Below are positions 27,345-45,155 of a stretch of 64,000 nt of DNA, one piece after another; within the stretch, counting starts at the first letter, position 1, and every line of letters begins with the position of its first letter. Below the pieces are notes generated by a model. It was given only the letters and a program-made list of their open reading frames with translations, searched no databases and was not told where the DNA came from. The stretch is from a virus. Its lineage: Duplodnaviria; Caudoviricetes. The stretch lies in IMG/VR virus record IMGVR_UViG_3300034170_000057; one strand, 5' to 3'. A program made the position numbers and the translations under genes.

Positions 27345-27353
27345 GGAAAAACC

Positions 27354-27779
27354 ATGCAGGACACGACCGAACAAACTCCAGTCGAATCGGCATTCGAATT
27401 CCATTACAAACTCGGCAATCGTTCGTTTCGATTCAACTGCGACGACATTGTGGCGCTTCGCGCTTCGCTGAAATACACCGAGGTTGTTTTGCGTAATTCT
27501 CCGATCATTCCGATTTGGAATGAGTCGCTGAAAACACTGATGAGCGACGAACGATTCAAACATGATTTCGTTTACGTGCATCGGGCTACGTTGGTTCGTA
27601 TGGCTGACATTTTCAGCGTTGATCGTGAGCCTGCATCATCCTCCAATTACTCTATCGTGCTGGACGCCACGGATGGGCAGCCCGCCAGCCCGCGTTACAG
27701 CTTCGTGATATCGCGTCGTTACTACGGCCCTATGCGGCGCACTGTGGCGGCCCGCAATGCCTTGACAGCCCCGGCCTAG
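27354..27779 (+). CDS. stand-alone LytTR-type DNA-binding domain protein
   Basis: DIVALRAS.KYT, ESLKTL, FVYVHRATLV...I, ISRRY match the LytTR pattern (F.RVHRS.IVN..I; VSR.Y). Confidence 0.7.
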   Translation: MQDTTEQTPVESAFEFHYKLGNRSFRFNCDDIVALRASLKYTEVVLRNSPIIPIWNESLKTLMSDERFKHDFVYVHRATLVRMADIFSVDREPASSSNYSIVLDATDGQPASPRYSFVISRRYYGPMRRTVAARNALTAPA

Positions 27780-27853
27780 AGGCCCATACTTCCCACCGTG
27801 GCACCACTGTGTCCGGATATTTTACACTCACAAAATATGGGAAGTTTCTAATG
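27762..27853 (+). promoter_or_regulatory. sigma70 promoter + hairpin + CACTCAC leader (copy 1)
   Basis: TTGACA-17-CATACT; hairpin 27796-27816; CACTCAC 27825; GGGAAGTT; ATG 27851. Confidence 0.85.
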
Positions 27854-28222
27854 GATGCCGATAGCACCGTTGCACAACGCGATAACGTTCTGCTTTGCTA
27901 CGAATTGATTCCTGAAGAGGTTTCGTTCTATTTCATTCCCTCTATTTCTGACGTGCCATTGCCGTTGCTGCATGCGCTTATCAGACTTGAGGGCGTGTAT
28001 GTAAATCACCTTACGAAAAGCCCCGATAGCGAACGCGCTGATAAAGATGCGGCTTACTTGTCGGCGGCACTTTGCGCGCAACGTGAGCATCTAGACGACA
28101 ACGACCAGCACCAACAAAACCGTTTCTTCGGTGCGCTGGTGAAATACAAGGTCGATACGCCGTCGTTTAGCTTCGAATCGGGTGGAACCGTCCACCTGAT
28201 CCGCACCGGTTTTTTGATGTAG
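27851..28222 (+). CDS. hypothetical early protein
   Basis: First gene after leader copy 1. Confidence 0.65.
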   Translation: MDADSTVAQRDNVLLCYELIPEEVSFYFIPSISDVPLPLLHALIRLEGVYVNHLTKSPDSERADKDAAYLSAALCAQREHLDDNDQHQQNRFFGALVKYKVDTPSFSFESGGTVHLIRTGFLM

Positions 28223-28327
28223 ACAAAAACTGTAAATAATACAGAGCAATAAACACTAGGCGTTGGCTATCGCTGACCAGCATGGCGCCCGGTGCATTCC
28301 TATAGGTTGGCACAAGGAAATAAAACG

Positions 28328-28768
28328 ATGGCTAAGTACGATCCTGCTGACACTGCGAAAGTTGAAACCCAAGTTCTCGCAATGGTGGAAGCTGCAAAGA
28401 TTGCCGGTAAGACAACGATCTTTTTCGATACCCGTGCGATGTTTAGCGCGATGAAATTTTCCAAGCTGACGCGTAACCAGTTCGGGGAACAACTCTGCGA
28501 TCAACTGACGGGTTCCACTTTCCACAAGAAGTATGGCGATTGGGTTGCGTGTGAGTACGAATGCGAAGTTTGGGTTATGACTCGTTTGGCTGCCCCCGGT
28601 GCTTTGCTTTCGATTAACGACGAAGGTCGTAACCTGTTCTACAACACGAACACGCGCAACAAGGTCAAAGCAAAGAAACAAATGGTTAGCGTGGAAATCC
28701 CTGCTGATGCTGATCCGGTGAAAGCCGCCGCGCTTATGCAGGAACTGTTCGCCAACCACCAGCAGTAA
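28328..28768 (+). CDS. hypothetical protein
   Basis: AAGGA RBS; highly biased codon usage. Confidence 0.75.
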   Translation: MAKYDPADTAKVETQVLAMVEAAKIAGKTTIFFDTRAMFSAMKFSKLTRNQFGEQLCDQLTGSTFHKKYGDWVACEYECEVWVMTRLAAPGALLSINDEGRNLFYNTNTRNKVKAKKQMVSVEIPADADPVKAAALMQELFANHQQ

Positions 28769-28782
28769 CTGCTGGAAGGCAC

Positions 28783-28814
28783 GCCCCGCCTAGATATTAG
28801 TGTGGGGCTTTTTT
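28783..28814 (+). terminator. intrinsic terminator
   Basis: GCCCCGC...GTGGGGC-TTTTTT. Confidence 0.7.
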
Positions 28815-29357
28815 ATGCCTAACCAAAATGGATTTCCACGCATGAAACTGACAGGCCGTAAAATTCAAATCTGGCGCCAACGCCTGAATATCAAACAGAC
28901 TGACCTTGCCGATTATGTCGGCATTCCTCAAACGGATTTGCAGCGGATCGAAAATAAACAGCACGTGGAGCATACCGACGAAATTCTCACGCTGCTATGC
29001 GCTGCAATGACCTACTTCGACAGAACGTCGATGGCGGATATCGTGGTGGATGCCGTGAAACGAAATGTCAGCACGCACGGATTTGTCGCGGGTTTGCAAA
29101 CGCTGACAGATACCGACACGACGACAGAATTCTACGTGACGAAAATCCGGCAGGCGAAATCACACATGCGCATTGCGGACACTCTGCGTTTCCGTAAAAA
29201 TGCGCTGGCTGGAGAAAAGCGGTACACCCTGCTTTTCGATAAAGGGCGCGACATGGAATTGTGGGGCAACGCGTTTACGATTGCTGCCCACTACGAAAAA
29301 TACTACGGCGACCGGAAAGTAGTACGCATTATTTCGACCGAGGTAGCCCCTGCATGA
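28815..29357 (+). CDS. XRE-family HTH protein
   Basis: IQIWRQRLNIKQTDLADYVGIPQTDLQRIEN; start may be 28842. Confidence 0.75.
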   Translation: MPNQNGFPRMKLTGRKIQIWRQRLNIKQTDLADYVGIPQTDLQRIENKQHVEHTDEILTLLCAAMTYFDRTSMADIVVDAVKRNVSTHGFVAGLQTLTDTDTTTEFYVTKIRQAKSHMRIADTLRFRKNALAGEKRYTLLFDKGRDMELWGNAFTIAAHYEKYYGDRKVVRIISTEVAPA

Positions 29358-29361
29358 GCGA

Positions 29362-29862
29362 ATGCGCGTGAACCTGTTCATCACTCATAGTTCCCAAACT
29401 TTATGTGCGCGTGCCCACTGCGACGTGCATCTAAATAAAATGATGGTCGAGTGCGCGCAGTTACTTTCTACTGCGCACCATGCCACAACCGGGGAGCAGG
29501 TCGGATACAAACCAACGCACAAAAATCACCCGTGTGCAATTTGGGTCCGGGAGTCCGCAGCGAATTATCGGTGGGCGTTCATTTTCTTCTGCGCGCTGCA
29601 TACCGAATATGAATACAGGACGGGCAAGGTTCAGAAATCGGCGCGGTACAAAAAAGTCCTGCGCTGTGTTCCGCCACTTCCTGAAATCGGACTGACTCCA
29701 TTTGCGCAAGCGGTGGACGATGAACACCGGCACCCAAACACCCACATTGCATATAGGCGCCACATTCGCGCAAAGCTAATAGAGTGGCCTACCCGTGACA
29801 GACCAGTGCGCACCACGTACACCCGGCGCCCCGCACCATGCTTTCTAACCGATTCCCCTTAG
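29362..29862 (+). CDS. pyrimidine-dimer DNA glycosylase / T4 endonuclease V-like
   Basis: M.VN.F, HCD.H..KM..E.AQLLSTAH, YK.TH.NHPC.IW.RES..NY.W. Confidence 0.8.
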   Translation: MRVNLFITHSSQTLCARAHCDVHLNKMMVECAQLLSTAHHATTGEQVGYKPTHKNHPCAIWVRESAANYRWAFIFFCALHTEYEYRTGKVQKSARYKKVLRCVPPLPEIGLTPFAQAVDDEHRHPNTHIAYRRHIRAKLIEWPTRDRPVRTTYTRRPAPCFLTDSP

Positions 29863-30019
29863 CCCGCCCCGTGCGGGCTTTGTCGTTTCTGGTTCCCGCG
29901 TTCATTGGGTCAAACAGAAAGCGTTTGACGTTCTACAGGCCCTTTGATACCTTTGGGGCCTCAACGGACTTCTGCTGTCCGCTATTCTTGCACTCACACT
30001 ATATGGGAAGTTAGACATG
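29862..30019 (+). promoter_or_regulatory. terminator + sigma70 promoter + hairpin + CACTCAC leader (copy 2)
   Basis: CCCGC/GCGGG-CTTTGTCGTTTCTGG; TTGACG(29925)-17-TACCTT with TG; CGGAC-TTCTGCT-GTCCG; CACTCAC 29991. Confidence 0.85.
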
Positions 30020-30187
30020 ACCATCCGCATTGGCAATTTCAAAACCTCGAAACACACCTACGAAGCTGGCGTCGAGAAAGACGGCGTGCGCTCCACGATC
30101 ACCATTGATGCGAACACGCGCACCATTGCCGGAAAGCTGGCCCGTGAAAACGGCTACACCGTCCGCGATATGAATATGGTGGGCTGA
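30017..30187 (+). CDS. small early protein (56 aa; not in ORF track)
   Basis: GGGAAGTT RBS; MTIRIGNFK...MNMVG. Confidence 0.75.
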   Translation: MTIRIGNFKTSKHTYEAGVEKDGVRSTITIDANTRTIAGKLARENGYTVRDMNMVG

Positions 30188-30190
30188 TCC

Positions 30191-30472
30191 ATGGCTAAGC
30201 CTAATGCGATTCCGCAATTCTACTGGGGCGACGACGCAGTAATTGTACCGGGCACCCGTGTACGAATTGTGAGCCGCCACGGATCAACCGGAAACGGCAC
30301 GGTGACGGAAATCCTCTATTGGGATAACTGCCCGCCGACAATCTGTCTGGAAATGGACGCCGACGCGGTTTATTCAGAACGCGTGCAATCCGGATGGGGG
30401 CCAGACGAACAACGCATTGCCGACATTGGTGTTTTCGGCGGCGAGATAAAAGAAGTGCTAGCCAAGCATTAA
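30191..30472 (+). CDS. hypothetical protein
   Basis: 93 aa. Confidence 0.65.
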   Translation: MAKPNAIPQFYWGDDAVIVPGTRVRIVSRHGSTGNGTVTEILYWDNCPPTICLEMDADAVYSERVQSGWGPDEQRIADIGVFGGEIKEVLAKH

Positions 30473-30475
30473 CCA

Positions 30476-30541
30476 ACTACCCCGCCCTGTGCGGGGTTTG
30501 TCGGTAGTAAACCAAATCGCCCTTTATCAAGGACTGCAAAA
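30476..30541 (+). repeat. terminator-RBS cassette (copy 1 of 3)
   Basis: TACCCCGCCCTGTGCGGGGTTTGTCGGTAGT...CCTTTATCAAGGA. Confidence 0.9.
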
Positions 30542-31024
30542 ATGACCGCAACCAAACGCGTTACCACCGCCGCCATTATGAAAGCCATCGGCTGCGACCA
30601 CCTGAATCTGCATAAAGGTGCTGGCTACTTTTATTTCACCTACGACAATCAGCCGCTGGGCATTTACGAAACCGAAAACGTTATGGTCTGCGCACTCAAC
30701 CATTTGCCACTGGAGCGCTGGATTGCAGAGGGCCGTGACTTCGTAAAGAAAATGGAACCTGCGCCGCGCCATCCGGGTTTCGACCTGATTGACAAATTGC
30801 GGACGTGTCGTGAAGTGCTGAGCCGCAGGCCGAGCGGCGAATATATCCACAAGCACGAAATGCAAGAATTGTGGGACCGTGAACAGGAAATTTTGTGCGG
30901 CATGGAAGCGGAACGGCGTGCCGAGTTTTATTTGGAATGGATTAAAACCAACCGGTTCGACCGCAACGAAATGCCTGCTGCTTTTTACGCGGCTGAAAAA
31001 GCAAACGGTTTGGGGAAATACTGA
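30542..31024 (+). CDS. hypothetical protein
   Basis: 160 aa behind cassette. Confidence 0.75.
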   Translation: MTATKRVTTAAIMKAIGCDHLNLHKGAGYFYFTYDNQPLGIYETENVMVCALNHLPLERWIAEGRDFVKKMEPAPRHPGFDLIDKLRTCREVLSRRPSGEYIHKHEMQELWDREQEILCGMEAERRAEFYLEWIKTNRFDRNEMPAAFYAAEKANGLGKY

Positions 31025-31025
31025 A

Positions 31026-31286
31026 ATGTGCAACGTACCAGAAGATGAATTTTGTGCAGCCTGTGCCGATGTTGCGCCGACTGATCCGTATTACGGCCAG
31101 TGCTTGGCGTGCGGGAACTTAGATCCCCGTGGCGCACCTGCAAAGGCTGCTGCCTACGTGCTGGAACTGGAAGGCCTGCTGCAAGATGCTATTGCGCAGT
31201 GCTACACCAAAAACAAACCTATGCAAGATCCTTTGCATATTCGTATTACGCAGGCGCTGACCCGCGACCGTGGACAAGGTAATTAA
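31026..31286 (+). CDS. small Cys-motif protein
   Basis: CAAC...CLAC. Confidence 0.55.
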   Translation: MCNVPEDEFCAACADVAPTDPYYGQCLACGNLDPRGAPAKAAAYVLELEGLLQDAIAQCYTKNKPMQDPLHIRITQALTRDRGQGN

Positions 31287-31288
31287 TC

Positions 31289-31741
31289 ATGACGCCGAAT
31301 GACGTTGCGAAAGTGAATCGCCGCCTGAAACCCAGCAACATGAAAATTCGCCGTTACGGTAGCGGCCACGCACTGTTCGATATTACCGGCACGCATCCGG
31401 AATTCATGGATTTCCTTTCCGTGCCAGATATGACGCTTTCGACGGTCGAGGAACTGGCTGCACTCTGCCGGTTGAAAGATACCCGCGCCCCTGCGCAGGA
31501 AACCCCGCCTGTCAAAAAGAAAGGCGTAGCGCGGGAGAAAGTGCCTCGTGATGTGCGCGGCGTTGAAATCGGAATCGGTGATTTGGTTTCCTATGCGATT
31601 GACTCGCGCCTGTACTGCAATCATGTGGTACGGATTACGCCTGCATTTGTTTGGATGGGTTGCGATCCGGACAAGCGCAATCTAACAGGTAACGCCCGAC
31701 GCGAACCCAACCGCGTTGTGGTAATCGAGAAAGCCAAATGA
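31289..31741 (+). CDS. hypothetical protein
   Basis: 150 aa; C-terminal 'D.RG.EI.IGDLV' SH3-like segment. Confidence 0.65.
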   Translation: MTPNDVAKVNRRLKPSNMKIRRYGSGHALFDITGTHPEFMDFLSVPDMTLSTVEELAALCRLKDTRAPAQETPPVKKKGVAREKVPRDVRGVEIGIGDLVSYAIDSRLYCNHVVRITPAFVWMGCDPDKRNLTGNARREPNRVVVIEKAK

Positions 31742-31941
31742 TTAAATTTATTCGCTGGCTTCTTGGTTTGTGCGTTCATGATTTCCGCGTGGTGGGAATC
31801 GAGGATGTGAAATGGCGTTCTGATCAACACAACCGACTTATCGACACTGATATGGCGCACGCTGGTGTAATCCACCACCGCAACTATACGATCCACTGCA
31901 CGAAATGCCCGTGCGTGAAAGTGAAACGAATTAAAATCTGA
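31738..31941 (+). CDS. small Cys/His protein
   Basis: LC.HDF...CTKC. Confidence 0.55.
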   Translation: MIKFIRWLLGLCVHDFRVVGIEDVKWRSDQHNRLIDTDMAHAGVIHHRNYTIHCTKCPCVKVKRIKI

Positions 31942-31951
31942 GGGCCAGACC

Positions 31952-32329
31952 ATGCAACAATCCAACCTGCTTTCCAACGTGCCAAAAATCAAAGCGCTGT
32001 TTGATCAAAATCCAACGCTGCCACAACCCCCACTGGAAGCGACGTTCCACCTGAAATTCCACGATCACCCGGAACACGTGGAAATCGAAGTGTGCCAATT
32101 TATTTTCACACGCTCGACCATACACGTTCCAAAGGCCAGCAACGATTTCGAAATCATCACGAGCGGACAACCGCCTGTGACCGGTGAAGACTCTGTAGAG
32201 GCCCTACAGCACGCGCTGCAAAAGATAGGCTACATACGCACGCCAGAACAGGCATTGACCCGTATGTTCACCATGGCGAAGACCACAAAGACCAAATACC
32301 CGCGCAAGGGCAAAGTTCGCCGCAAATAA
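31952..32329 (+). CDS. hypothetical protein
   Basis: GAGG RBS. Confidence 0.6.
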   Translation: MQQSNLLSNVPKIKALFDQNPTLPQPPLEATFHLKFHDHPEHVEIEVCQFIFTRSTIHVPKASNDFEIITSGQPPVTGEDSVEALQHALQKIGYIRTPEQALTRMFTMAKTTKTKYPRKGKVRRK

Positions 32330-32340
32330 AAGATACAACT

Positions 32341-32395
32341 TACCCCGCCCTGTGCGGGGTTTGTCGGTAGTGGCCTTTATCAAGGAATTCAAAAC
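32341..32395 (+). repeat. terminator-RBS cassette (copy 2 of 3)
   Basis: 31 bp identical to 30478-30508. Confidence 0.9.
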
Positions 32396-32890
32396 ATGCT
32401 TTATTTAACCGTGCTGTCTTCAGAAGTACCAACGCAGGCCGATATCTGGCCGCTCGTTGGGCAGTATCCAGACCTGTCCGAAAAGTTCCAAGCATTCATG
32501 AATCCGGAAACTAGCCGGATTAAAGTGGACGTGCGTAGTTCTGCCGAGTTCGCAGATTTGAAACTGCGCCCGTATATGTTCGCGGTGCGGTTGACCGAGG
32601 GCGGTGTTGAATTCGATTATGATCACCTGCCCATTATCGTGCTGTACAACAAGACTCCGGAACAGCACGATCTGGAACACACAAAGCAGCGCCTGCAATT
32701 CCAACTGCCTGACATTTGGAAAGCGCTCGAATTTATTATGGATGCTGAATATTCCGATATGGAACAGCATGTCACTTCTACAGGTAACGGCCTGCTGATC
32801 ATGCGCGACATTAACCGCGCAGAACTGCGTGACGCATTTGCACGCGGCAACCGTTCTAATTTCACCGTCGTCGAAGGATCTAAATCATGA
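32396..32890 (+). CDS. hypothetical protein
   Basis: 164 aa behind cassette. Confidence 0.75.
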   Translation: MLYLTVLSSEVPTQADIWPLVGQYPDLSEKFQAFMNPETSRIKVDVRSSAEFADLKLRPYMFAVRLTEGGVEFDYDHLPIIVLYNKTPEQHDLEHTKQRLQFQLPDIWKALEFIMDAEYSDMEQHVTSTGNGLLIMRDINRAELRDAFARGNRSNFTVVEGSKS

Positions 32891-33444
32891 GCATCGAAAA
32901 CAAGAAGCTGATTAATTTGCTGGCACAGGCAATTCAGGATATCAACGCGCACGGTTCCGATGTGCTGGAAATTATCGACCGCCTGAATTGCGACATGCGC
33001 GACGTTGCGGATACCAGCGAGCCGATTCTTCCACGTCGCAAATACGACGAAGTGTGGAAAGCTCCCGAACTGGTGCCGATGGAATGTTTCTATGACCGGA
33101 ACGAATTCGAACGCGCAGTGCCAAGGGGCTACCGGCTGCGCGTGGCATTCCTCACAAATAAATCGTGGTGCGAAACCTACAGCATCGCAACGCAGGAACC
33201 GCACTACGTCGAAGCACCTGCGGGCAGCGGCGCAGAATACGTGGATGTGTTTTTTGAGCGCACCAATCGTAACTGCGACATTGCGAAGGCTTCCGCTTTC
33301 CACCGAGCGCTTAAAGATGCGTATATGCTGAAAACTATGAACAGCTTCGGTATCGGTTCTAGTGCGCCGTGCGAACACCTGCGCTTTACCGTTACGCACG
33401 ACAAATTCCGCGAAGATCAAATGATGGATCAGGATTCCGTATGA
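32887..33444 (+). CDS. hypothetical protein
   Basis: 185 aa, ATGA coupling. Confidence 0.7.
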   Translation: MSIENKKLINLLAQAIQDINAHGSDVLEIIDRLNCDMRDVADTSEPILPRRKYDEVWKAPELVPMECFYDRNEFERAVPRGYRLRVAFLTNKSWCETYSIATQEPHYVEAPAGSGAEYVDVFFERTNRNCDIAKASAFHRALKDAYMLKTMNSFGIGSSAPCEHLRFTVTHDKFREDQMMDQDSV

Positions 33445-33665
33445 TGACCGACATTGAACCGATTTGGTGGCTGCGCATTTTCATGATTGCGCTTTTGTTA
33501 GGCATGGGGATTTTCGGCTGGTGCGAGATTTCCAAAGCGCGGACGATTAAGCGCTATTACGACAGCCGCCGTAAAGCATTCGACGCACAATTAGCAGCGG
33601 CCATTCTGACGGTCGCTGCGCACTCTAACGAAAAACCCAAGGAAGAGAAAAATTCTGATGAATGA
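33441..33665 (+). CDS. small membrane protein
   Basis: One TM segment. Confidence 0.55.
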   Translation: MMTDIEPIWWLRIFMIALLLGMGIFGWCEISKARTIKRYYDSRRKAFDAQLAAAILTVAAHSNEKPKEEKNSDE

Positions 33666-34044
33666 TGCACTGCCCTCAAAAATATTCGGCGCTCGCCTTT
33701 CGTGGACATTTGAAGGCGTGACCAAAACGCAAACCAATTGGTACTCCACCAATGAACAGGAGGCGCAAGCGTGCCTCTTAAAGGCGCAGGCAATTGCACC
33801 ACCGGCTAACTGCGCCATTGTGTGGGAAACGGTTTCTGACGACGTGCGTATTCTGTCACCGGGCATTTACATCACTGACAAAAAGCACCTAGTGGAAATC
33901 TACGAAGTGGGGCCTTTTGTTGTGCGTGGCTGTTTTCTGAAACCCAACCGCAAACACATGCAACACGAACAGTGCCAGTTCTACGCCAACGGCGCACCAA
34001 CAACCCACAAGAACTGGGGCAGTATCGCGGATCTTGTGGCGTAA
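33658..34044 (+). CDS. hypothetical protein
   Basis: 128 aa. Confidence 0.6.
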   Translation: MNDALPSKIFGARLSWTFEGVTKTQTNWYSTNEQEAQACLLKAQAIAPPANCAIVWETVSDDVRILSPGIYITDKKHLVEIYEVGPFVVRGCFLKPNRKHMQHEQCQFYANGAPTTHKNWGSIADLVA

Positions 34045-34071
34045 CGAAATTTAAACCCCGAGGAATAAATA

Positions 34072-34503
34072 ATGACGCAGAAATTAACCCACTTCGTAAT
34101 TCCAGCAGGCCGCACGCTTCACGAGGTCGTTTGCAAAATCCCGCAACCGGATGGTGAAGAAACCGGCCACACATCGTGGGGCGACCGAGAATTCAACCAC
34201 CTATTTACAACTGTTGAGGGTGACGGTTCTGTAATCGTGGAATTGCTAGATCGGTTTTACATCGTTTCGCCTTCTACAGGTCGCCGTGGTTTCGGTGACA
34301 AGATTATGGACGCGAACGATGATCTGTTTACCGGGCTGCTGGAAACTGATCCGCTGTTCGATCAGGTCTGCAAAGCTGACAAATGGCTTTACACCGTTTC
34401 GGCAGACTTCACACCGGAACCAAAACCGGGCGGCGACTTGCACATTCGCCAGCTTTGCAAAATCAGCGTGCGTCGATATACGCCGTTGGTGGAAATGGAA
34501 TAA
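34072..34503 (+). CDS. hypothetical protein
   Basis: GAGGA RBS. Confidence 0.7.
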   Translation: MTQKLTHFVIPAGRTLHEVVCKIPQPDGEETGHTSWGDREFNHLFTTVEGDGSVIVELLDRFYIVSPSTGRRGFGDKIMDANDDLFTGLLETDPLFDQVCKADKWLYTVSADFTPEPKPGGDLHIRQLCKISVRRYTPLVEME

Positions 34504-34513
34504 GCGAAACCAG

Positions 34514-34539
34514 AAGCCGAGGCCAGTCCTCGGCTTTTC
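34514..34539 (+). terminator. intrinsic terminator
   Basis: AAGCCGAGG-CCAGT-CCTCGGCTT-TT. Confidence 0.7.
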
Positions 34540-34561
34540 ACTTTCTATAGGAGGTAAAACC

Positions 34562-34741
34562 ATGAGCCTGAACATTCTAGAGGTCGTGCAGTACACGTGT
34601 ATCGCGATTCTGGCTGTGGGCGTTCCTGTGGAGCTTTGGCGCCGCTACAAAGGCCCGAGCCCATATGAACAGGCGGTGCAGGAACTGGAACAGAAGCTGA
34701 AAGCAAAACCGGAACCGGAAGGCGAAAGCAAAAGTAGTTGA
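34562..34741 (+). CDS. small membrane-anchored protein
   Basis: AGGAGG RBS; N-terminal TM. Confidence 0.7.
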   Translation: MSLNILEVVQYTCIAILAVGVPVELWRRYKGPSPYEQAVQELEQKLKAKPEPEGESKSS

Positions 34742-34827
34742 CACCGGAACACGGTTTTGCGATTCTTTGGTGGCGGGCAAACTGTGCCTGCTATTTAGAC
34801 ACTCACGCAATTAGGGAAGTTAAGATG
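34738..34827 (+). promoter_or_regulatory. sigma70 promoter + hairpin + CACTCAC leader (copy 3)
   Basis: TTGACA-17-GATTCT; GCGGGCA-AACTG-TGCCTGC; CACTCAC 34800; GGGAAGTT; ATG 34825. Confidence 0.85.
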
Positions 34828-35453: not shown

Positions 35454-35454
35454 C

Positions 35455-35856: not shown

Positions 35857-35862
35857 ACCCTT

Positions 35863-35886: not shown

Positions 35887-35932
35887 GCAGGTTGTACCGA
35901 AACCCCGAAACCTCACGTAAGGAGATTTACCG

Positions 35933-36205: not shown

Positions 36206-36211
36206 AACATG

Positions 36212-36306
36212 TTGACACCCCAGCGCCTGTAATGGCATTCTGAAATCCAATCGGCAACAACGCCGACGCAGTATCACACTCACACTTTATAGGAAGTTAA
36301 AACATG
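36212..36306 (+). promoter_or_regulatory. sigma70 promoter + hairpin + CACTCAC leader (copy 4)
   Basis: TTGACA-18-CATTCT with TG; TCGGC-AACAAC-GCCGA; CACTCAC 36277; AGGAAGTT. Confidence 0.85.
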
Positions 36307-37836: not shown

Positions 37837-37933
37837 CTAGGGCGCTTCCTAGAAACACCCCCGGCGCGTAAATGCAAAGGGGGTTATTTTTCGCCTTCGT
37901 TTTTCCATCACAAATGCTAAGGAGGGTATTAGC

Positions 37934-38563
37934 ATGGAATATCTACTGTTCACGGTTGGATTGCTTGGTATCGCGCTATGCCTTGCGGCGCTGTGCCGGT
38001 TAACATTTGGCACGCGGGATGCGGGTAAGCTGGAAATCACCACCACCGAAATTAAACCAGACCAGATTAACGCCTCGGACTATAAAGAGCCGGGTAGTTT
38101 CTGGAGTGGTGCAAAACCTGTTGCTCCAATGCGCGATATTCCGTTCACACGTGAAGAGCGCGAACAGGCACGGGCCAAGGCCAACGCCGAGGCCAACGAA
38201 TCGCAAAACGTGCCCAATCCGGAAACTGTAAATTTGGAGAAGCCTAAACCGAAATTCGATTACCCGAACTTCGAAGGCTTTCCTTTTGACGGGGATACAT
38301 ACGACGAATTCAATTTGTCTATGATGACGCACGGCTTTGTCATTCGCTTTATTATGGCTAGCCACGAAGTGCAGGTAATCTATACGCCGCCTAAATCGCG
38401 GAACCCTATGGAGGCCCTGCGTCGTTTTTATTCTCCACCGAAAGCTATTTTCCCGCTGAACCTGCTACACGATGAAGGCCGTATGCGCACCGCGTTGTGG
38501 GCCATGCGTAAATTGAAATCCGATGAACGCCCACCAGAACTGGATGCGTTCGCGTACTTGTGA
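37934..38563 (+). CDS. membrane-anchored hypothetical protein
   Basis: AAGGAGG RBS; N-terminal TM. Confidence 0.7.
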   Translation: MEYLLFTVGLLGIALCLAALCRLTFGTRDAGKLEITTTEIKPDQINASDYKEPGSFWSGAKPVAPMRDIPFTREEREQARAKANAEANESQNVPNPETVNLEKPKPKFDYPNFEGFPFDGDTYDEFNLSMMTHGFVIRFIMASHEVQVIYTPPKSRNPMEALRRFYSPPKAIFPLNLLHDEGRMRTALWAMRKLKSDERPPELDAFAYL

Positions 38564-39069
38564 GGCCCCGCATGATTTCCGAAAACGCAAAAGGCATTTG
38601 GCTGACAACCCAACCGGGCAAGCCTTACCCTGTGCGCGTGAATATCAGTCGTCGCGAAGTTGAATATGACCAGCGACGTACTGATCACGACTGCAATGAA
38701 GAGTTCGACCTTCACATAACTTTGAAGGACGATAAAAATAATCGGTCGTTTGCCACCGTGGTTATTTCCGGTGGTGGCCTTATGGCCGCGTTGGGGAATC
38801 GCGCAGAAATCCGGGCCAGTCTAATTTTCGAAGACAGCGCCGAATTACTCGGCCTGTTGAAAGAAACCAAAGAGGTCTGGATTAAGGCGCAACCCAAACT
38901 CAATTACAACGACGAACCCAAACTGAAAAAGGCGTGGACGCACGAAGGCTGGATGTACTCCGGTGGCTATAATGATCACCGTCGCAGTGAGAAACGCGCA
39001 GATGGCGAATACTACCGGTGCGAACTTGTGCGCTACGTCAAAGCCGAATCCGAGGATGAACAGGAATGA
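38560..39069 (+). CDS. hypothetical protein
   Basis: About 169 aa; start may be 38572. Confidence 0.65.
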   Translation: MRPRMISENAKGIWLTTQPGKPYPVRVNISRREVEYDQRRTDHDCNEEFDLHITLKDDKNNRSFATVVISGGGLMAALGNRAEIRASLIFEDSAELLGLLKETKEVWIKAQPKLNYNDEPKLKKAWTHEGWMYSGGYNDHRRSEKRADGEYYRCELVRYVKAESEDEQE

Positions 39070-39587
39070 AAACCACTGCATGGAACGAAGCGCACGAATT
39101 AAATTTCCAGTCGCTGCAAGACCTGTTCAAGACTACCCGCGAGACGCTTGAATTTATGAAAGCGGCCAAAGAGCGTGAAATCTCGCCGGAAGAATTGTCG
39201 CGCCGTATCGGCGTTGAGAAAATCCGCCAAGACAAAATCATGGCGCGGCTGTGTGACTACGTTAAACGCAACGGCGGGCGCTACACGGTCGGCAAGTTGG
39301 AAAACGGTTCCATGGGCCACACCACTTATAATTGGACGCTGATTTTGCATCTGGTCGGCGGGCACAAATTGGAATTCCAGTTTGCGCGCTGTTATGAGCC
39401 GGAAGTTTTCGACGTGCCACTTTCGCACCAGTGGTATTTCCGCCCAAAAGGCCGTCGCGCATATTTCATTATGCAAGACCAAGGCTATAACGATTGTGAA
39501 TCGGTTCCTGAATTGACCCGCTACGTTAAGCAGGCCCTGAAATGGGCGTCTGACGAAATGGGCACCAAAATCGAAATTAAGAAATAA
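39066..39587 (+). CDS. hypothetical protein
   Basis: 173 aa. Confidence 0.7.
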   Translation: MKTTAWNEAHELNFQSLQDLFKTTRETLEFMKAAKEREISPEELSRRIGVEKIRQDKIMARLCDYVKRNGGRYTVGKLENGSMGHTTYNWTLILHLVGGHKLEFQFARCYEPEVFDVPLSHQWYFRPKGRRAYFIMQDQGYNDCESVPELTRYVKQALKWASDEMGTKIEIKK

Positions 39588-39596
39588 GGACATACC

Positions 39597-39977
39597 ATGC
39601 TTACGCTGATGTTAAAATTGTGTTTGGCAGGGCAGCCGTGCAAAGAAGTCCGGATCGCGGATTTCTACTCGGCGCAGGCTTCTTACATGTGCAGCCTCAA
39701 CCGTGGCGGAATGGCCGAGCAATCCAAAAAGGAAGGGCGCACCGGCACATTCGAATGCAAACCGGGTTTAGGGCCTAGCACGCTCAAATCCTCGGCTGTG
39801 TTGAATTTCAAAGTCTGCACCGCCGACAAGACATGCGAGACTTTCCCCCTTGCGGATTTCTACGGCAAGGAAATGGCGGTCCCGATGTGTACCAAGAACG
39901 TGGAATATATGCAGCCCGGTTTTATACAGGCTGCAAAAGAAACAGGGGCCACTGTAGAACTCAACTGCCAATCGTAA
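39597..39977 (+). CDS. Cys-rich protein with two tandem repeats
   Basis: C-x5-C...ADFY...MC...C occurs twice. Confidence 0.7.
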   Translation: MLTLMLKLCLAGQPCKEVRIADFYSAQASYMCSLNRGGMAEQSKKEGRTGTFECKPGLGPSTLKSSAVLNFKVCTADKTCETFPLADFYGKEMAVPMCTKNVEYMQPGFIQAAKETGATVELNCQS

Positions 39978-39987
39978 GGGGGCGCAG

Positions 39988-40293
39988 ATGAATCCCGAGT
40001 TATGCGTGATGCTTGCGGTTGCCGTTGGCGCCGCTGTGATGCTGATTTCGATTCTGTGTCTTGTGTGCCTACTTACATCGGTGCGTAGAAAGTTATGGCA
40101 CACCGAGCTAAACAATCGTGCGTGGCAAAATGAAAACCAGATACTGCGCCGCCAGATAGAAGAGGATCGGAACGCGGATCGCGCCCGCCGTGGTGATCAC
40201 GGGAAGGTTTACGAGGGCAGCTATAGAGAGTTGCGCAAGTGCAGGAAGACCGGGCGCTGGTCCACCGTCCGGGAAGTGGAAGTGAATCCGTAA
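39988..40293 (+). CDS. membrane-anchored small protein
   Basis: N-terminal TM followed by coiled segment. Confidence 0.55.
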   Translation: MNPELCVMLAVAVGAAVMLISILCLVCLLTSVRRKLWHTELNNRAWQNENQILRRQIEEDRNADRARRGDHGKVYEGSYRELRKCRKTGRWSTVREVEVNP

Positions 40294-40304
40294 CCAACAC
40301 CAAA

Positions 40305-40510
40305 GGCTCCCCAGTTCACGCTGGCGGGGCCTTTGTCGTTTCTGGCGTGCGTTGGCCGCTCTCTATACGCGGGCGCGGGCCTGTACGCTTTCTAGGGCCT
40401 GCAATAGAAAGCGCTTGACGGATAGAGGGGGCTTTGATACCTTTGGCCTCAATCGGGCTTCTGCTGCCCGCAGAAAAGCCCCTCACGGAATAAAGGAAGT
40501 TTGAATCATG
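40305..40510 (+). promoter_or_regulatory. terminator + sigma70 promoter + hairpin + (C)CTCAC leader (copy 5)
   Basis: ...CTTTGTCGTTTCTGG; TTGACG(40415)-17-TACCTT; CGGGC-TTCTGCT-GCCCG; CCTCAC; AGGAAGTT. Confidence 0.85.
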
Positions 40511-40648
40511 GCCTACGCAACGACCGCCAAACGCAAAACGGAAACCAAGACCGCCACGTGGAAATGGGATTCGCAGATTCGCATGGAACAGGAAGCCCGT
40601 GAAAAGCAAGTTAGTGACGCCGCTCGCCGCTTTCGCAAATCCATCTAA
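40508..40648 (+). CDS. small early protein (46 aa; not in ORF track)
   Basis: MAYATTAKRK...RKSI; AGGAAGT RBS. Confidence 0.7.
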   Translation: MAYATTAKRKTETKTATWKWDSQIRMEQEAREKQVSDAARRFRKSI

Positions 40649-40673
40649 CCCCAACCCATTAAGGAACACCAAA

Positions 40674-40904
40674 ATGAAACGCGTCTACGAAATCCGCCTC
40701 ACCGCAACATTCACCAACACCGAAACCGGCACTACCATGAGCAAGGGCATTAACTACCCGCTGGTAGAAGAAACCGCCGACGCTGCAATTGCCAAGGCAC
40801 AAACGGCGGAACGTATCGGCATGATTGTCGCCACGTACATTCCCCAGCAGCACCAGCGCAAAGTCACCTGCACCGTCTCCAACATCACCGCCAACGCTAA
40901 ATAA
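40674..40904 (+). CDS. small early protein
   Basis: AAGGA RBS. Confidence 0.7.
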   Translation: MKRVYEIRLTATFTNTETGTTMSKGINYPLVEETADAAIAKAQTAERIGMIVATYIPQQHQRKVTCTVSNITANAK

Positions 40905-40916
40905 GGAGTATCGAAA

Positions 40917-41060
40917 ATGGAATACGCAACCACCGCAATGGGCCACGTAAAAGAAATCGCCGTCCTGATCGCGTTCGGCTCCGCACTCGGCGCATTCGCC
41001 TACTTCGAACTACGCAAGAAACGCAACGCGCCTAAACCGCGTGGCGCTACCAAAATCTAA
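40917..41060 (+). CDS. small membrane peptide (47 aa; not in ORF track)
   Basis: AAGGAG RBS; single TM plus basic tail. Confidence 0.65.
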   Translation: MEYATTAMGHVKEIAVLIAFGSALGAFAYFELRKKRNAPKPRGATKI

Positions 41061-41111
41061 AACGCTGTACCCGCCACACAAACCACTCTCCTGACTGTAA
41101 AGGATTCTAAA

Positions 41112-41522
41112 ATGAAAACCGTAGCTGCTTTCCCTGCTTTCGACGTTATCGACCTTGAACAAGATGTAATCTGCATCGCCCGCGAACAGATGGACAATTT
41201 TACCGGCCTGAAATTCTGCGTTGCGAAAGAAACTCTGCGTCATGGCACCCTGTACCCGGAAGTTCGCCCGTACTGTGCTGCGTACTACGCGCAGGACTAC
41301 AACGAATGCCCGGTAGCTGCCGAAACGCGTTGCGACGACCTGAAGCATGAAAAATACTGGGTCGGCAATTGCGGCGCCATGATCACCAGCGAAAAGCGTA
41401 ACAAGGGCGTCCGGATCTTTTTGAAACCGGGCCAGAAAATCGAAATGAACGGCGTGCTTCTTGAGTTCTACCAGAAAGCGCCGCGTTCGGAACACTACGG
41501 CTTGAAACCCGTAGTCGCGTAA
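41112..41522 (+). CDS. hypothetical protein
   Basis: AAGGA RBS; 136 aa. Confidence 0.75.
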   Translation: MKTVAAFPAFDVIDLEQDVICIAREQMDNFTGLKFCVAKETLRHGTLYPEVRPYCAAYYAQDYNECPVAAETRCDDLKHEKYWVGNCGAMITSEKRNKGVRIFLKPGQKIEMNGVLLEFYQKAPRSEHYGLKPVVA

Positions 41523-41603
41523 ACAGTTAGTTGATTCTGCGCATCCGTGTGGTGCGCAGGCGTGACGAAACTGAAACAGCACTAATTAGCTACGAGGTAG
41601 ATC

Positions 41604-41843
41604 ATGTTCGACAATTTGAGATTTTCAATCGGCACGGTCGGTGACACAACTTACACCGGTATCGTGATCGAAGACGACGGCTTCATTGTGGAATACGATT
41701 TTGTGTTTCAGGATGAACCTGAAGCCCGTGATTTTTTCGGGGAAGTTTACTGGGCGCGTGTTACCGCCTACGCAAAACCAACGTTTGCAGTTCCGAACCC
41801 GGAATATGCAGAGGTCACACACTCCATAGGGGCGCGGTCATGA
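41604..41843 (+). CDS. hypothetical acidic protein
   Basis: GAGG RBS. Confidence 0.6.
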   Translation: MFDNLRFSIGTVGDTTYTGIVIEDDGFIVEYDFVFQDEPEARDFFGEVYWARVTAYAKPTFAVPNPEYAEVTHSIGARS

Positions 41844-42343
41844 CAGCTAATCGTAAGAAAACCGAAACCCTGCATATGCGCCTGAATTTCCGCCATAAGC
41901 TGTATCTGGTCGCACTCGCAAACGTGCAAGAAACCACGGCGTCTAGTTACGTGGAAACGCTGCTGGATAATTTGGCAGCTAAGCAGACCGTGGACGGTTG
42001 CCTCGGCACGCTGACGATTAAAGACGCCGTGGATATTGCGATAATCAAAGGCTCGCCAGCCATGACCGCACTGCGCACGTTTTATATCGCGCCTCAAATT
42101 CTAAGCCCGTCTGATATGGCAATGCAGCGTGCCCTAGAATGCAACATGGATTATTTCGGCGGCACTGACGAAATTCTAACAGCGGATGAAATTGGAACGG
42201 GCCAGCGCCCACCGTCTGTAAACGCCGCGTTGCTTGCGGACCATCTTGAGGTTTTGCAGGAATACGCAAACTTCGCAAAATCGAACCCGCATATGGTTAT
42301 GTCCTACGTCGATTATCGCCGTTGCACTGGCCGCTCTGAATAA
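41840..42343 (+). CDS. putative ribbon-helix-helix DNA-binding protein
   Basis: KKTETLHMRL...K..L..LA..Q..T.SSYV..LL. Confidence 0.55.
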   Translation: MTANRKKTETLHMRLNFRHKLYLVALANVQETTASSYVETLLDNLAAKQTVDGCLGTLTIKDAVDIAIIKGSPAMTALRTFYIAPQILSPSDMAMQRALECNMDYFGGTDEILTADEIGTGQRPPSVNAALLADHLEVLQEYANFAKSNPHMVMSYVDYRRCTGRSE

Positions 42344-42353
42344 GGATCACGTG

Positions 42354-42740
42354 ATGCAAACTTTTATGAGTTGGTTTCCGCACTGGTATATCGGCGCCTG
42401 CTTTATGTTGGGTTTCGTGATTCTGCCGATCATGGTTTTTCTGGCGTCTCGCCCGTTGCTCATTGGTTTGAGTTACGGCCTTTGGGAAACCGTGTGCTGG
42501 TACAAGTGCGGCCTGCCGATGTGGAAAGTTTTCCGGCGCCTTTTTATTGCGGTGCTGTGGGATACTTTCACATGGCGCCTTATCAACAGCTACACGGAAA
42601 ACGTGAGCCACAACGAAGGGAGCTGGAGCGGCATTTTCCGCTGGAGTTTCCGAAAAACATTTACCCGCGCTGCTGGCAAGAAATTTATTGCACAGCAAGC
42701 GGCGGCAAAACGTAAAGCAGCTATGGACGCAGACGTATGA
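42354..42740 (+). CDS. membrane protein
   Basis: Hydrophobic N-terminal half. Confidence 0.6.
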   Translation: MQTFMSWFPHWYIGACFMLGFVILPIMVFLASRPLLIGLSYGLWETVCWYKCGLPMWKVFRRLFIAVLWDTFTWRLINSYTENVSHNEGSWSGIFRWSFRKTFTRAAGKKFIAQQAAAKRKAAMDADV

Positions 42741-42976
42741 AACCTCGTGAACCTTTGTGGTCCCTGAAAGATTTGGCAGGCCACGCAAAAGTTACGGAAA
42801 GCGCACTAACACAGCGCTCTAAGAAACATCCCATTCCGCCCGCGTTTAATCAGGAAGACGGGCGTATTGATTCACGGTTCGGCTCTGTGGCAATCGCAGG
42901 CCGTTATCGCCGGTCGGCAATTCTGGAGTGGTTCAACACGCAGGATGCGGCAACCCCGTTTAAACGGAAGGCATAA
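42737..42976 (+). CDS. AlpA/excisionase-like HTH protein
   Basis: LWSLKDLA....VTESAL....KK..IPPAF...RYRRSAILEWF. Confidence 0.55.
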   Translation: MKPREPLWSLKDLAGHAKVTESALTQRSKKHPIPPAFNQEDGRIDSRFGSVAIAGRYRRSAILEWFNTQDAATPFKRKA

Positions 42977-42979
42977 GCC

Positions 42980-43174
42980 ATGTACAAGACTGATTACAAA
43001 ACCGATCCTGATTTTGTTGCGGATCAGGATATTCACGGTGCTATTCAGTGGGCGAGATATTCGCAGCGGCATTTTATACAGGCCATGCGTCATGGTTTTC
43101 TCATGGCGGCGTATGAATACAAAGTAGATCGCGACACGTTTATGCAGCGTGCGCGAAACTGTAAATCTAAATAA
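42980..43174 (+). CDS. hypothetical protein
   Basis: 64 aa. Confidence 0.5.
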   Translation: MYKTDYKTDPDFVADQDIHGAIQWARYSQRHFIQAMRHGFLMAAYEYKVDRDTFMQRARNCKSK

Positions 43175-43186
43175 GGGAATTAAATC

Positions 43187-43663
43187 ATGACCACTCTCAA
43201 CACGATCAAGAAAGGCCCGTTCAAAGGCATGGTGCTGATTGTAAACGACCACATTAAATCGAAGGCTGTCCTGTGGCCGCACGAAGCCGCCATGGAAATT
43301 GAAAAGGGCGCCCGCGTAGTCGAGGAAAAAGAATGGGATGCTTTCAAAACGCAATCCATGATCGACCGGGATACAAAGGCCGTCGCGCCTATTGAAGCGG
43401 AGCCCGTCGCGCCTATTGTTGAGGGGCCAGATTTTTCGATTCTGGATTTGCCCGGTACGCGCCGCGTTGTGAAAGTGCAAGTCTCTGAAAAATTCTACGC
43501 GGAGACACGGGAATTCGAAAGCGGCTGGGGTAACAAGCGCGATGACCTGCTGGAATTCGACACGGCGGAAGAACGGGATGCGTGGTGCAAAGCCTACAAC
43601 CTGAAACACAACAGTGAAGCCGCCACGCCAGCGTGGTACATAAAAGCCTTCGTGTTGAATTAA
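43187..43663 (+). CDS. hypothetical protein
   Basis: AAGGG RBS. Confidence 0.7.
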   Translation: MTTLNTIKKGPFKGMVLIVNDHIKSKAVLWPHEAAMEIEKGARVVEEKEWDAFKTQSMIDRDTKAVAPIEAEPVAPIVEGPDFSILDLPGTRRVVKVQVSEKFYAETREFESGWGNKRDDLLEFDTAEERDAWCKAYNLKHNSEAATPAWYIKAFVLN

Positions 43664-43734
43664 TCACTGCTGCACATTCTGAGGTCTAGAGTGTGCAACG
43701 GGATAAACTCCAATCACAAACGAGGAAGTGAAAG

Positions 43735-44418
43735 ATGACCGAGATTATTTATCTGATTTTAGAAGTGCTGGGGGTTGCATCCCTGCTTTATGTTTTCGTC
43801 AGATATGTGGTGCCATCGCTGCTGTGGTTATCGGCTGCCGTTTTCGGTTTCCGATGCCACCTGACGATTGCGAAACTGCACGGAATTGATACGGCGCCTA
43901 TTTGGGCAAGCGCGCCCCGGCATATTTTTCGTGCGTGGATGGAACATATGGATTACCACGTAACGCTGCGTGATCCTGATTTGTCGTATCACTACCGCAC
44001 CGGCACCCACAACAGCGTCACGAAGAATGAACCGTGGCTAGATCAATTGGCAACCGCACTTCGCCTCGGTCGCACGCTTATGCGCCTCGACGTTTTCAAG
44101 GATGGCGCGGACCTGCAAGTAAACGAAACGCTGAATTGTTCGATTGCGACGTTGCCTCCCGGCCTTTTGGGTAGGGATGGTTTTTACCGCGTGCTGTTTC
44201 TGTATCCGGAATCGCCGGTTATGGAATCGGTGATCGGCCTCGACCTCGTGCGTATGTTCAAAACAATTAAATACTACATGCCCGGACTGGACTATGTGGT
44301 GGTGGTAAACCCACGCCAGTTGATCGACGGTAAACACAACCTGATCGAATATCTGTCTGCCACTAACGGCATATGGATCGGCTGTGACCATCTGGCTTTT
44401 GAAATACCCAAGGACTGA
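43735..44418 (+). CDS. membrane-anchored hypothetical protein
   Basis: GAGG RBS; N-terminal TM. Confidence 0.7.
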   Translation: MTEIIYLILEVLGVASLLYVFVRYVVPSLLWLSAAVFGFRCHLTIAKLHGIDTAPIWASAPRHIFRAWMEHMDYHVTLRDPDLSYHYRTGTHNSVTKNEPWLDQLATALRLGRTLMRLDVFKDGADLQVNETLNCSIATLPPGLLGRDGFYRVLFLYPESPVMESVIGLDLVRMFKTIKYYMPGLDYVVVVNPRQLIDGKHNLIEYLSATNGIWIGCDHLAFEIPKD

Positions 44419-44568
44419 CTGCCGTTGAGGCGAAGGCGCTCGCTGTTGCTGGTGCGTCCCACGACATAGGCAACGTTCTAACGGGCCTCGGTGAACGTGA
44501 GGGGCTGTTTCTGCAATGGGCACAGGGTCGCAGAGGCTTGAAGTTGAAACGTTGCTGTAGCGAGTGCA

Positions 44569-44691
44569 AGCGGCCCCTGTAGGGGCTGTTTTCGTTTGTT
44601 GACCGTTCGTCAGTCGATAGGTACAATGAAAACCAGTCGGGCAAGTTGCGCCCACGATTCACCCACTCACGCAATAAGGGAAGTTAGAATG
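44569..44691 (+). promoter_or_regulatory. terminator + sigma70 promoter + hairpin + CACTCAC leader (copy 6)
   Basis: GCGGCCCC/GGGGCTGT-TTT; TTGACC(44599)-17-TACAAT; GGGC-AAGTTGC-GCCC; CACTCAC 44664; GGGAAGTT. Confidence 0.85.
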
Positions 44692-45153: not shown

Positions 45154-45155
45154 GA

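Follow-up and report, generated by a model that had tools for sequence, protein, structure and literature searches.

The 64,000-nucleotide stretch of viral DNA analysed here (IMG/VR record IMGVR_UViG_3300034170_000057, referred to below as the window) contains six leaders of one architecture between positions 27762 and 44691: a sigma70-type promoter, a short GC hairpin, a CACTCAC box, exactly 7 nt, and a ribosome-binding site (RBS) of the form RGGAAGTT followed by an ATG. That these sites are copies of an early expression cassette of about 90 bp, specific to one lineage, is well supported by comparison with related phages, and the closest described kind of element is PeSL, the repeated combination of early promoter and stem-loop of T4-type phages. 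A fuller reading, in which the cassette carries a protective hairpin and a box-Shine-Dalgarno (SD) element that is read by a lineage-specific factor, is proposed tentatively, and we put its chances somewhat below even.

The shared layout had been proposed in a sequence-only reading of the window, and the positions of the -35 hexamer, spacer, -10 hexamer, hairpin, box, 7-nt spacing and RBS were all confirmed. The earlier description of promoters and hairpins stands as placed and is extended by two features: a TGn extended -10 is present in four of the six promoters, and stems reach up to 11 bp. The six modules consist of the following elements:

27762..27790, plus strand: module 1 promoter, -35 TTGACA, 17-nt spacer, -10 CATACT.
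27800..27813, plus strand: module 1 leader hairpin, GGCAC/GTGTC with one G.U pair and a 4-nt loop.
27825..27853, plus strand: module 1 box and RBS, CACTCAC, 7 nt, GGGAAGTT, ATG at 27851 (123-amino-acid ORFan, phrog_4658).
29861-29879: intrinsic terminator just upstream of the module 2 promoter.
29925..29953, plus strand: module 2 promoter, TTGACG, 17 nt, extended -10 TGa TACCTT.
29965..29981, plus strand: module 2 leader hairpin, CGGAC/GTCCG with the loop TTCTGCT.
29991..30019, plus strand: module 2 box and RBS, CACTCAC, 7 nt, GGGAAGTT, ATG at 30017 (56-amino-acid ORFan).
34738..34766, plus strand: module 3 promoter, TTGACA, 17 nt, TGc GATTCT.
34773..34791, plus strand: module 3 leader hairpin, GCGGGCA/TGCCTGC with one G.U pair and the loop AACTG, extendable to 11 bp.
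34800..34827, plus strand: module 3 box and RBS, CACTCAC, 7 nt, GGGAAGTT, ATG at 34825 (115-amino-acid ORFan).
36138-36154: terminator-like hairpin upstream of the module 4 promoter.
36212..36241, plus strand: module 4 promoter, TTGACA, 18 nt, TGg CATTCT.
36251..36266, plus strand: module 4 leader hairpin, TCGGC/GCCGA with the loop AACAAC.
36277..36306, plus strand: module 4 box and RBS, CACTCAC, 7 nt, AGGAAGTT, ATG at 36304 (510-amino-acid protein with a KTSC domain).
Near 40305-40335: terminator upstream of the module 5 promoter.
40415..40443, plus strand: module 5 promoter, TTGACG, 17 nt, TGa TACCTT.
40454..40470, plus strand: module 5 leader hairpin, CGGGC/GCCCG with the loop TTCTGCT.
40480..40510, plus strand: module 5 box and RBS, CCCTCAC, 7 nt, AGGAAGTT, ATG at 40508 (46-amino-acid basic protein, conserved in relatives).
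44568-44591: terminator immediately upstream of the module 6 promoter.
44599..44627, plus strand: module 6 promoter, TTGACC, 17 nt, TACAAT.
44636..44655, plus strand: module 6 leader hairpin, core GGGC/GCCC with the loop AAGTTGC and flanking GU/AC pairs.
44664..44691, plus strand: module 6 box and RBS, CACTCAC, 7 nt, GGGAAGTT, ATG at 44689 (154-amino-acid ORFan).

At all six sites the ATG follows RGGAAGTT at a distance of 3-6 nt. The first genes behind the leaders are indeed unrelated to each other, as had been stated from the sequence alone; they are ORFans, and the KTSC domain of module 4 is the only Pfam domain among them.

A search for CACTCAC-N7-RGGAAGTT with up to two mismatches gave six matches in the window, all on the plus strand, where 100 shuffles gave an expectation of 0.17. 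Taken singly, CACTCAC and GGAAGTT otherwise occur at background frequency, and GGAAGTT is the RBS of none of the 107 other called genes of the window. A covariance model was built from 56 distinct leader copies and run with filters off; in the 64-kb window it recovered exactly the six leaders with 48-67 bits, the next match scoring below 10 bits. A strict promoter regular expression recovered all six leader promoters and gave three other matches in 64 kb, all of them intragenic. Thus, every intergenic TTGAC-type promoter of the window carries the leader. A generic scan for promoters and terminators revealed no overall enrichment, and Rfam covariance models had no match over 27000-46000 at E values up to 5.

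All genes of the window are located on the plus strand, and the GC content is about 51%. Its only close relative in GenBank is the 313-kb Pseudomonas phage HRDY3 (77% identity over 6% of the query). Protein searches showed that Lu11 is also related, and that jumbo phages of Erwinia and Dickeya are more distant. Judged by these matches, the window is part of a Lu11/HRDY3-like jumbo Pseudomonas phage; the Lu11-type group was named Lupandier (PMC7412058). In HRDY3 the pattern is found at about ten places with the same layout of promoter, hairpin, box and RBS, and the covariance model detected 11-12 copies in HRDY3 and 10 in Lu11; PaBG, Dickeya AD1 and Erwinia Y3 gave no match. A comparable set of TTGAC-type promoters is also missing from the PaBG genome. 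Since PaBG infects Pseudomonas as well, the cassette goes with the Lu11/HRDY3 lineage rather than with the host genus. Scanning IMG/VR returned 114 stretches, which include about 55 distinct copies of the full architecture in about ten contigs of 280-343 kb (one of them Lu11); the other stretches are scattered chance matches without the promoter.

The extended consensus was matched twice in 185,579 prokaryote genomes, which is at or below chance. The only match in Pseudomonas is an intergenic run of 27 nt identical to the consensus box-RBS in Pseudomonas sp. GD04091 (L140:970-1000, minus strand), about 130 nt upstream of an ArsC/low-molecular-weight phosphatase-like gene. It has neither a TTGAC promoter nor a hairpin or start codon, and is probably due to chance.

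The six window leaders are at positions orthologous to HRDY3 leaders. The early regions of the two phages are collinear and the flanking orthologous proteins are 30-75% identical, so the leader has been kept far better than the surrounding genes. Each copy retains its own hairpin and promoter spacer, which resemble those of its orthologue, and homogenisation within a genome is not seen; purifying selection on each copy, and not gene conversion, therefore accounts for the invariance of box and RBS. The sequence-only reading had left conservation in relatives to be checked, and the motif is kept there. Gene content at the edge of the cassette is less constant. In the HRDY3 orthologues of modules 1 and 2 an extra small gene follows directly 3' of the leader, and the first gene of the window corresponds to the second HRDY3 gene, with an ordinary SD; the other four sites are collinear.

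TTGAC is present in all leader copies, which was partly ascertained through the selection of the copies. Among 51 distinct copies the spacer has 17 nt in 40 and 18 nt in 11, a TGn extended -10 is found in 40 (about 6% expected by chance), and the distance between the -10 and the box in distinct copies is 32-37 nt. With its -35 hexamer, spacer, -10 hexamer and TGn, the upstream part has all elements of a sigma70 (extended -10) promoter. The Lu11 record (JQ768459) annotates a sigma70-like promoter (TTGACA-N15-17-TATAAT) at one leader copy at least, near 276430. This annotation covers the promoter alone; the hairpin, the box and the fixed RBS are not annotated there. The literature collection searched contained nothing on these three elements, nor on HRDY3.

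Neither an RNA polymerase beta subunit nor a phage multisubunit RNA polymerase was found in HRDY3, which does encode sigma factors. A T7-like RNA polymerase (PF00940) was not found either, in a search of unverified sensitivity that gave no match in control genomes. As HRDY3 lacks an RNA polymerase of its own, yet has sigma factors, early transcription must use the host holoenzyme. Taken together with the promoter statistics, this is in agreement with the earlier assignment of the leaders to sigma70-type early promoters. A loose resemblance to T3/T7 promoters, off by 3 nt in spacing, led us to consider CCCTCAC or CACTCAC, the AT-rich stretch and GGGA as a promoter for a phage single-subunit RNA polymerase. 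Transcription starting at GGGAAG would put the SD at the very 5' end of the transcript, and this reading gives no account of the TTGAC/TGn promoter and the hairpin. In view of the PF00940 result, membership in the T7-like promoters was rejected, and the probability of this explanation is negligible.

Of 64 distinct copies, nearly all have the hairpin at one common place, with a stem of 4-13 bp and a loop of 3-9 nt. Length and sequence of the loop are unrelated between copies, which argues for a structural element and against a sequence-specific binding site. Several stem families occur (CGGGC/GCCCG, CGGAC/GTCCG, TCGGC/GCCGA, GGCAC/GTGCC, TTGGCC/GGCCGA). The compensatory change that had been noticed in the window is real, CGGAC/GTCCG at 29965-29981 and CGGGC/GCCCG at 40454-40470 enclosing an identical loop, and so are the G.U pairs in the stems of modules 1 and 3. 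Stems also show compensatory changes between orthologues: GGGTA/TGCCC stands against GCCCA/TGGGC, an A-U pair at window positions 29965-29981 is replaced by G-C at HRDY3 L001:6939, and two G-C pairs are flipped to C-G between L058 and L032:5534. Two stem positions alternate between G-C and G.U in a strand-specific way, more in keeping with RNA than with DNA. Compared to dinucleotide shuffles, the hairpin region of the 64 distinct copies, which are related and hence not independent, has a mean z of -1.6. The alternation, the flips between orthologues and the stability above shuffles support the earlier view that selection acts on RNA structure. This assessment is based on hairpin calls for each sequence and on shuffles instead of a model-fitted alignment. 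RNAalifold applied to a MAFFT alignment missed the hairpin due to misalignment, and gave only a 4-pair interaction between invariant bases of box and RBS.

The hairpin starts 0-13 nt past the -10 (mode 9), which corresponds to about +1 to +6 of the transcript, given a predicted start about 7 nt past the -10. No T-run is present 3' of the hairpin, where an A-rich linker is found instead; the hairpin is therefore not a terminator. Separate intrinsic terminators are located just upstream of promoters 2, 4, 5 and 6. The linker between hairpin and box is A-rich and near-constant with about 9 nt, and the 3' arm TGCCYG is at a fixed distance from the box. It is known that 5'-terminal stem-loops (E. 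coli ompA type) and 5' SD-like sequences (STAB-SD, SP82 early RNA) stabilise mRNA. From the position of the hairpin, the free loops and the known 5' stem-loop stabilisers, we infer that the hairpin protects the 5' end: it would cap every early mRNA and keep RppH and RNase E from starting decay there. The 5' end to which the hairpin is close is the predicted one.

The box has the consensus YRYTCAC, with the variants CAGTCAC, CGCTCAC, CGATCAC, CCCTCAC and CACTTAC. Its TCAC core is near-invariant, the 7-nt spacing is always kept, and RGGAAGTT is almost never altered. A and T predominate in the 7-nt spacer, whose fifth position is a nearly invariant T. The (A/G)GGA core of RGGAAGTT serves the first gene as its SD, and this leader SD can pair with the 3' tail of a Pseudomonas 16S rRNA through 6 bp, a mismatch and 2 bp, slightly better than a typical AAGGA site.

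Such a leader may have been optimised in cis and need no dedicated factor. Purifying selection for very fast and high translation of the first early gene would then have assembled a strong promoter, a stabilising hairpin, an unstructured A/C-rich standby region and a good SD, and the box would be an enhancer or spacer. The cassette indeed always precedes the promoter-proximal gene, with normal spacing between SD and start, and its SD is of the AGGA/AAGGA type usual for this phage (ordinary genes mostly have AGGA, AAGGA or AGGAA). Linker, box and spacer are G-poor (13% G), the loops are free to vary, and PeSL cassettes of promoter, stem-loop and SD recur without a dedicated factor (PMC2839356). 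However, an enhancer needs neither invariance at the level of single bases nor an exact spacing of 7 nt across phages with proteins of about 50% identity. The box is not complementary to Pseudomonas 16S rRNA above chance, as 73% of shuffles pair equally well, and its predicted accessibility is ordinary (about 0.58 unpaired, with an uninformative profile). Box and RGGAAGTT are moreover intact at copies without an adjacent start codon, which are described below. We regard an optimised leader without a dedicated factor as rather unlikely.

Two other kinds of regulator were considered for the box-RBS element. Sites for CsrA/RsmA have the consensus A(N)GGA in a hairpin loop, and targets usually have two or more GGA sites. 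The leader fits A(N)GGANGU at the sequence level only, with a single GGA outside the loop, and was rejected as a CsrA/RsmA site. No antisense copy of the motif is present in the window, so that an antisense RNA regulator encoded there is unlikely.

Some leader copies in the relatives are not directly followed by a start codon. These start-less copies are HRDY3 L001:25161, which is the orthologue of window module 6, with its relatives in L032 and L058; HRDY3 L004 with its orthologues in L043, L048 and L120; and Lu11 L070. The true gene start is 25-190 nt farther on and has its own SD. Box and RGGAAGTT are intact at every start-less copy, and the element is therefore selected independently of the adjacent start codon. 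In these copies RGGAAGU is predicted to pair with a complement just downstream, or with upstream sequence in the case of Lu11 L070, at the following places:

HRDY3 L001:25161-25200: start-less copy with paired RGGAAGU.
HRDY3 L004: start-less copy with paired RGGAAGU.
L058:206-250: start-less copy with paired RGGAAGU.
L043:2612-2650: start-less copy with paired RGGAAGU.
Lu11 L070:6570-6790: start-less copy with paired RGGAAGU.

The masking of RGGAAGU where no start codon follows indicates that its exposure as RNA matters. At HRDY3 L001:25161 the masking hairpin is directly 3' of the leader and is followed by a T-run. Located about 75 nt from the promoter, this arrangement looks like an intrinsic terminator or attenuator, and a small RNA or a regulated leader may be its product.

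The start-less copies also bear on the view that CACTCAC-N7-GGAAGTT acts as a DNA operator, the duplex being bound by a phage repressor that forms a roadblock about 40-60 bp past the early promoters. The sequence is invariant with or without a following start codon, the internal spacing is rigid, and several predicted DNA-binding proteins are encoded in the early region of HRDY3. Yet the element has no dyad or direct-repeat symmetry, and its distance to the promoter varies by 5 bp, so that there is no helical phasing. It doubles as a working SD, normally spaced from the ATG, and is adjacent to a hairpin with strand-specific G.U pairs, and the evolution of an RNA complement to RGGAAGU in the start-less copies shows selection on the transcript. 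We consider a DNA operator very improbable.

Several leader operons have intrinsic terminators with interrupted U-tracts after 1-2 genes (at about 30481, 32344, 37860 and 45375), and long gene runs without promoters lie behind these internal terminators, which are present at orthologous places in HRDY3. HRDY3 and Lu11 have further leader copies on the other strand, at the head of a replication/recombination/sigma-factor block. In HRDY3 this block comprises about 25 kb and encodes SSB, a RecA-like protein, a topoisomerase, a helicase and a phage sigma factor; its leaders are:

HRDY3 148287-148542 (L005), minus strand: two tandem leaders, more divergent.
HRDY3 129066-129142 (L004), minus strand: one leader.

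Entry into the next transcription class thus probably depends on the early cassette. This layout could point to processive antitermination: in a manner similar to nut or ops elements, and without belonging to these families, the nascent leader, or a factor bound to it, would modify the host RNA polymerase so that the enzyme passes the early-operon terminators, which would separate immediate-early from delayed-early genes. Besides the conserved internal terminators with promoter-less runs behind them and the HRDY3 leaders heading the 25-kb block, it is in line with this mechanism that the leader is directly 3' of every early promoter and that start-less copies keep the element, the one at HRDY3 L001:25161 with a hairpin and T-run right behind it. 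The first gene of module 5, encoding a small conserved basic protein of 46-50 amino acids, has a position analogous to lambda N. The overlap of the element with a working SD at fixed spacing, however, points to translation rather than to elongation. Each operon has its own promoter, and partial read-through of the interrupted U-tracts may suffice. No gene for a NusG-like protein or NusG paralogue was found in HRDY3. The leader has no boxA-like sequence, its loops are not conserved as those of boxB would be, there is one hairpin and not two as in put, and Rfam gave no match. The proposal that the leader is a nut or put site was tested on these features and did not hold up; antitermination as a mechanism is a separate question, and in our judgement unlikely.

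The reading we favour combines the cassette with a protective hairpin and an RNA operator. A host sigma70 promoter would start each early operon, the hairpin would form at the predicted transcript start, and box and RGGAAGUU, held at the rigid 7-nt spacing, would be read jointly as single-stranded RNA by one trans-acting factor. That box-N7-RGGAAGUU is the operator for a lineage-specific, trans-acting RNA-binding factor through which the fates of early mRNAs are coordinated is a possibility to be taken seriously, with a probability clearly under one half. Since the element occurs only in the Lu11/HRDY3 lineage, and PaBG lacks it although it infects Pseudomonas, a phage-encoded factor is the most likely. 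It would provide a single handle on all early operons, for shut-off or boosting; shut-off might, for instance, resemble the action of T4 RegB or RegA and cut or block the leader where the protective hairpin joins the message. It is more doubtful whether the element serves the whole early regulon as operator of a new lineage-specific RNA-binding regulator, or of an RNA polymerase modifier that is loaded via the nascent leader. Such a regulator could sever or release the 5' hairpin, block initiation, or permit read-through of the conserved internal terminators.

A number of results weigh against an RNA operator with a protective hairpin. No candidate RNA-binding protein was identified, and a factor in need of a single strand would itself be hindered by the masking of RGGAAGU in start-less copies. 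The pairing of the SD with the 16S tail is moderate (about -6.5 kcal/mol) and fits ordinary AGGA-type usage; conservation of the leader could partly reflect an optimised initiation region. The model-fitted alignment gives the hairpin only modest formal support: 69% of cells are paired compared to 65% in shuffles, and covariation is 0.171 versus 0.134, a value reached by 7 of 500 shuffles. The modest pair count is partly explained by the 6-nt-loop family, which stays misaligned. As the leader copies are related by descent, their counts overstate independence. Finally, a peat metatranscriptome consists of long assembled contigs, from which transcript starts, transcript ends and strand are unreadable, so that it does not count as evidence for transcription units.

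The peat metatranscriptome library, the only RNA library found to contain the region, covers 27000-46000 entirely, with contigs of up to 13 kb and word depths of 45-214; a second RNA run gave no coverage. It may be the source sample of the window assembly, and DNA carry-over is possible.

Other elements are repeated in the neighbourhood of the leaders. One is a terminator-RBS unit in the early operons, composed of the stem CCCGCCC(T/C)GTGCGGG, then TTTGTCGGTAGT, then CCTTTATCAAGGAAT and an ATG:

30473-30541: terminator-RBS unit.
32330-32395: terminator-RBS unit.
45354-45435: terminator-RBS unit.
29861-29879: also of this kind.
HRDY3 L001, about 8000 and 10030: terminator-RBS units conserved at the orthologous positions.

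The intergenic motif CTGTAAAT[A] is present at 16381, 28230, 43159, 52480 and other places. This recurrent CTGTAAATA motif is reminiscent of the T4 late promoter TATAAATA, and it probably marks a promoter class that is read with the phage sigma factor; features named 'putative middle/late promoters' are annotated in the Lu11 record. Intergenic inverted repeats form a third regulatory class. They have the forms TGCGCA-N9/10-TGCGCA, TGCACA...TGTGCA and GGGCA...TGCCC, lack T-runs, are often followed by TGCAG, and are also present in HRDY3 gaps:

35864-35885: intergenic inverted repeat.
41538-41558: intergenic inverted repeat.
43671-43697: intergenic inverted repeat.
47486-47506: intergenic inverted repeat.
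52441-52460: intergenic inverted repeat.

The basic 46-amino-acid product of the first gene of module 5 (40508-40648) has counterparts of 46-50 amino acids in at least seven related phages. It has an invariant W.WD motif and the C-terminal sequence DAARRFRK, and is a candidate nucleic-acid binder.

Jumbo phages without an RNA polymerase of their own must run the early programme via the host enzyme, and how early genes are timed and silenced is largely obscure outside T4. In the clade studied here a compact conserved RNA element, with about 10-12 copies per genome, marks every early operon. If a dedicated factor reads this element, it would define a new post-transcriptional or elongation-level regulon, and the promoter-leader unit would serve in Pseudomonas putida as a strong part for early expression, ready for use. 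If there is no such factor, the element still defines the early regulon, and PeSL-like architecture is then not confined to T4-type phages.

Among the described systems, the leader shares with ompA-type 5' stem-loop stabilisers, STAB-SD and SP82 early RNA the presence of a hairpin or SD close to the 5' end, which is a predicted end in the case of the leader. Unlike the leader, ompA-type and STAB-SD stabilisers have no conserved sequence box. The early phage regulators of T4 offer another parallel. RegB cuts GGAG, and RegA binds to loosely defined AU-rich sites. In both cases early messages share a feature in or near the SD, which lets one phage protein silence them jointly, but neither protein uses a long fixed box-N7-SD element. 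RegB and RegA act on the initiation regions of early mRNAs (reviewed in PMC3014915). A homologue of either protein was not found, though no search was aimed at one.

With lambda nut, rrn leaders and HK022 put the leader has in common a short conserved RNA element, made up of a hairpin and a single-stranded box, just 3' of early promoters, with terminators farther on. BoxA has the consensus CGCUCUUA / UGCUCUUUA. The box YRYUCAC shares only the CUC core with it, the leader loop is not conserved, order and spacing of the elements differ from those of lambda nut, and the leader overlaps the SD. HK022 put has two larger stem-loops and about 70 nt in total, compared to one short hairpin in the leader.

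The strongest likeness is to the PeSL of T4-type phages, repeated cassettes of early promoter and stem-loop with gene gain and loss at their edges (PMC2839356, PMC4122927). The leaders are likewise a repeated composite of a sigma70-like early promoter, a GC stem-loop, an SD and a start codon, mostly located before ORFans in a plastic early region. The suggestion from the sequence alone that they may act as PeSL-like mobile cassettes receives some support, since a gene was gained or lost at the 3' edge of the cassette in two of the six orthologous copies, the other four being collinear. There are also clear differences. The leaders belong to Lu11-like jumbo phages and not to T4-type phages, and there are about 10-12 copies per genome versus about 50 for PeSL. 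The PeSL stem-loop is a terminator or attenuator of variable position, whereas the leader hairpin has one fixed position within the transcript and separate terminators are found upstream. To the composite known from PeSL, the leader adds a TCAC box that hardly varies and, at a rigid distance from it, an invariant RBS.

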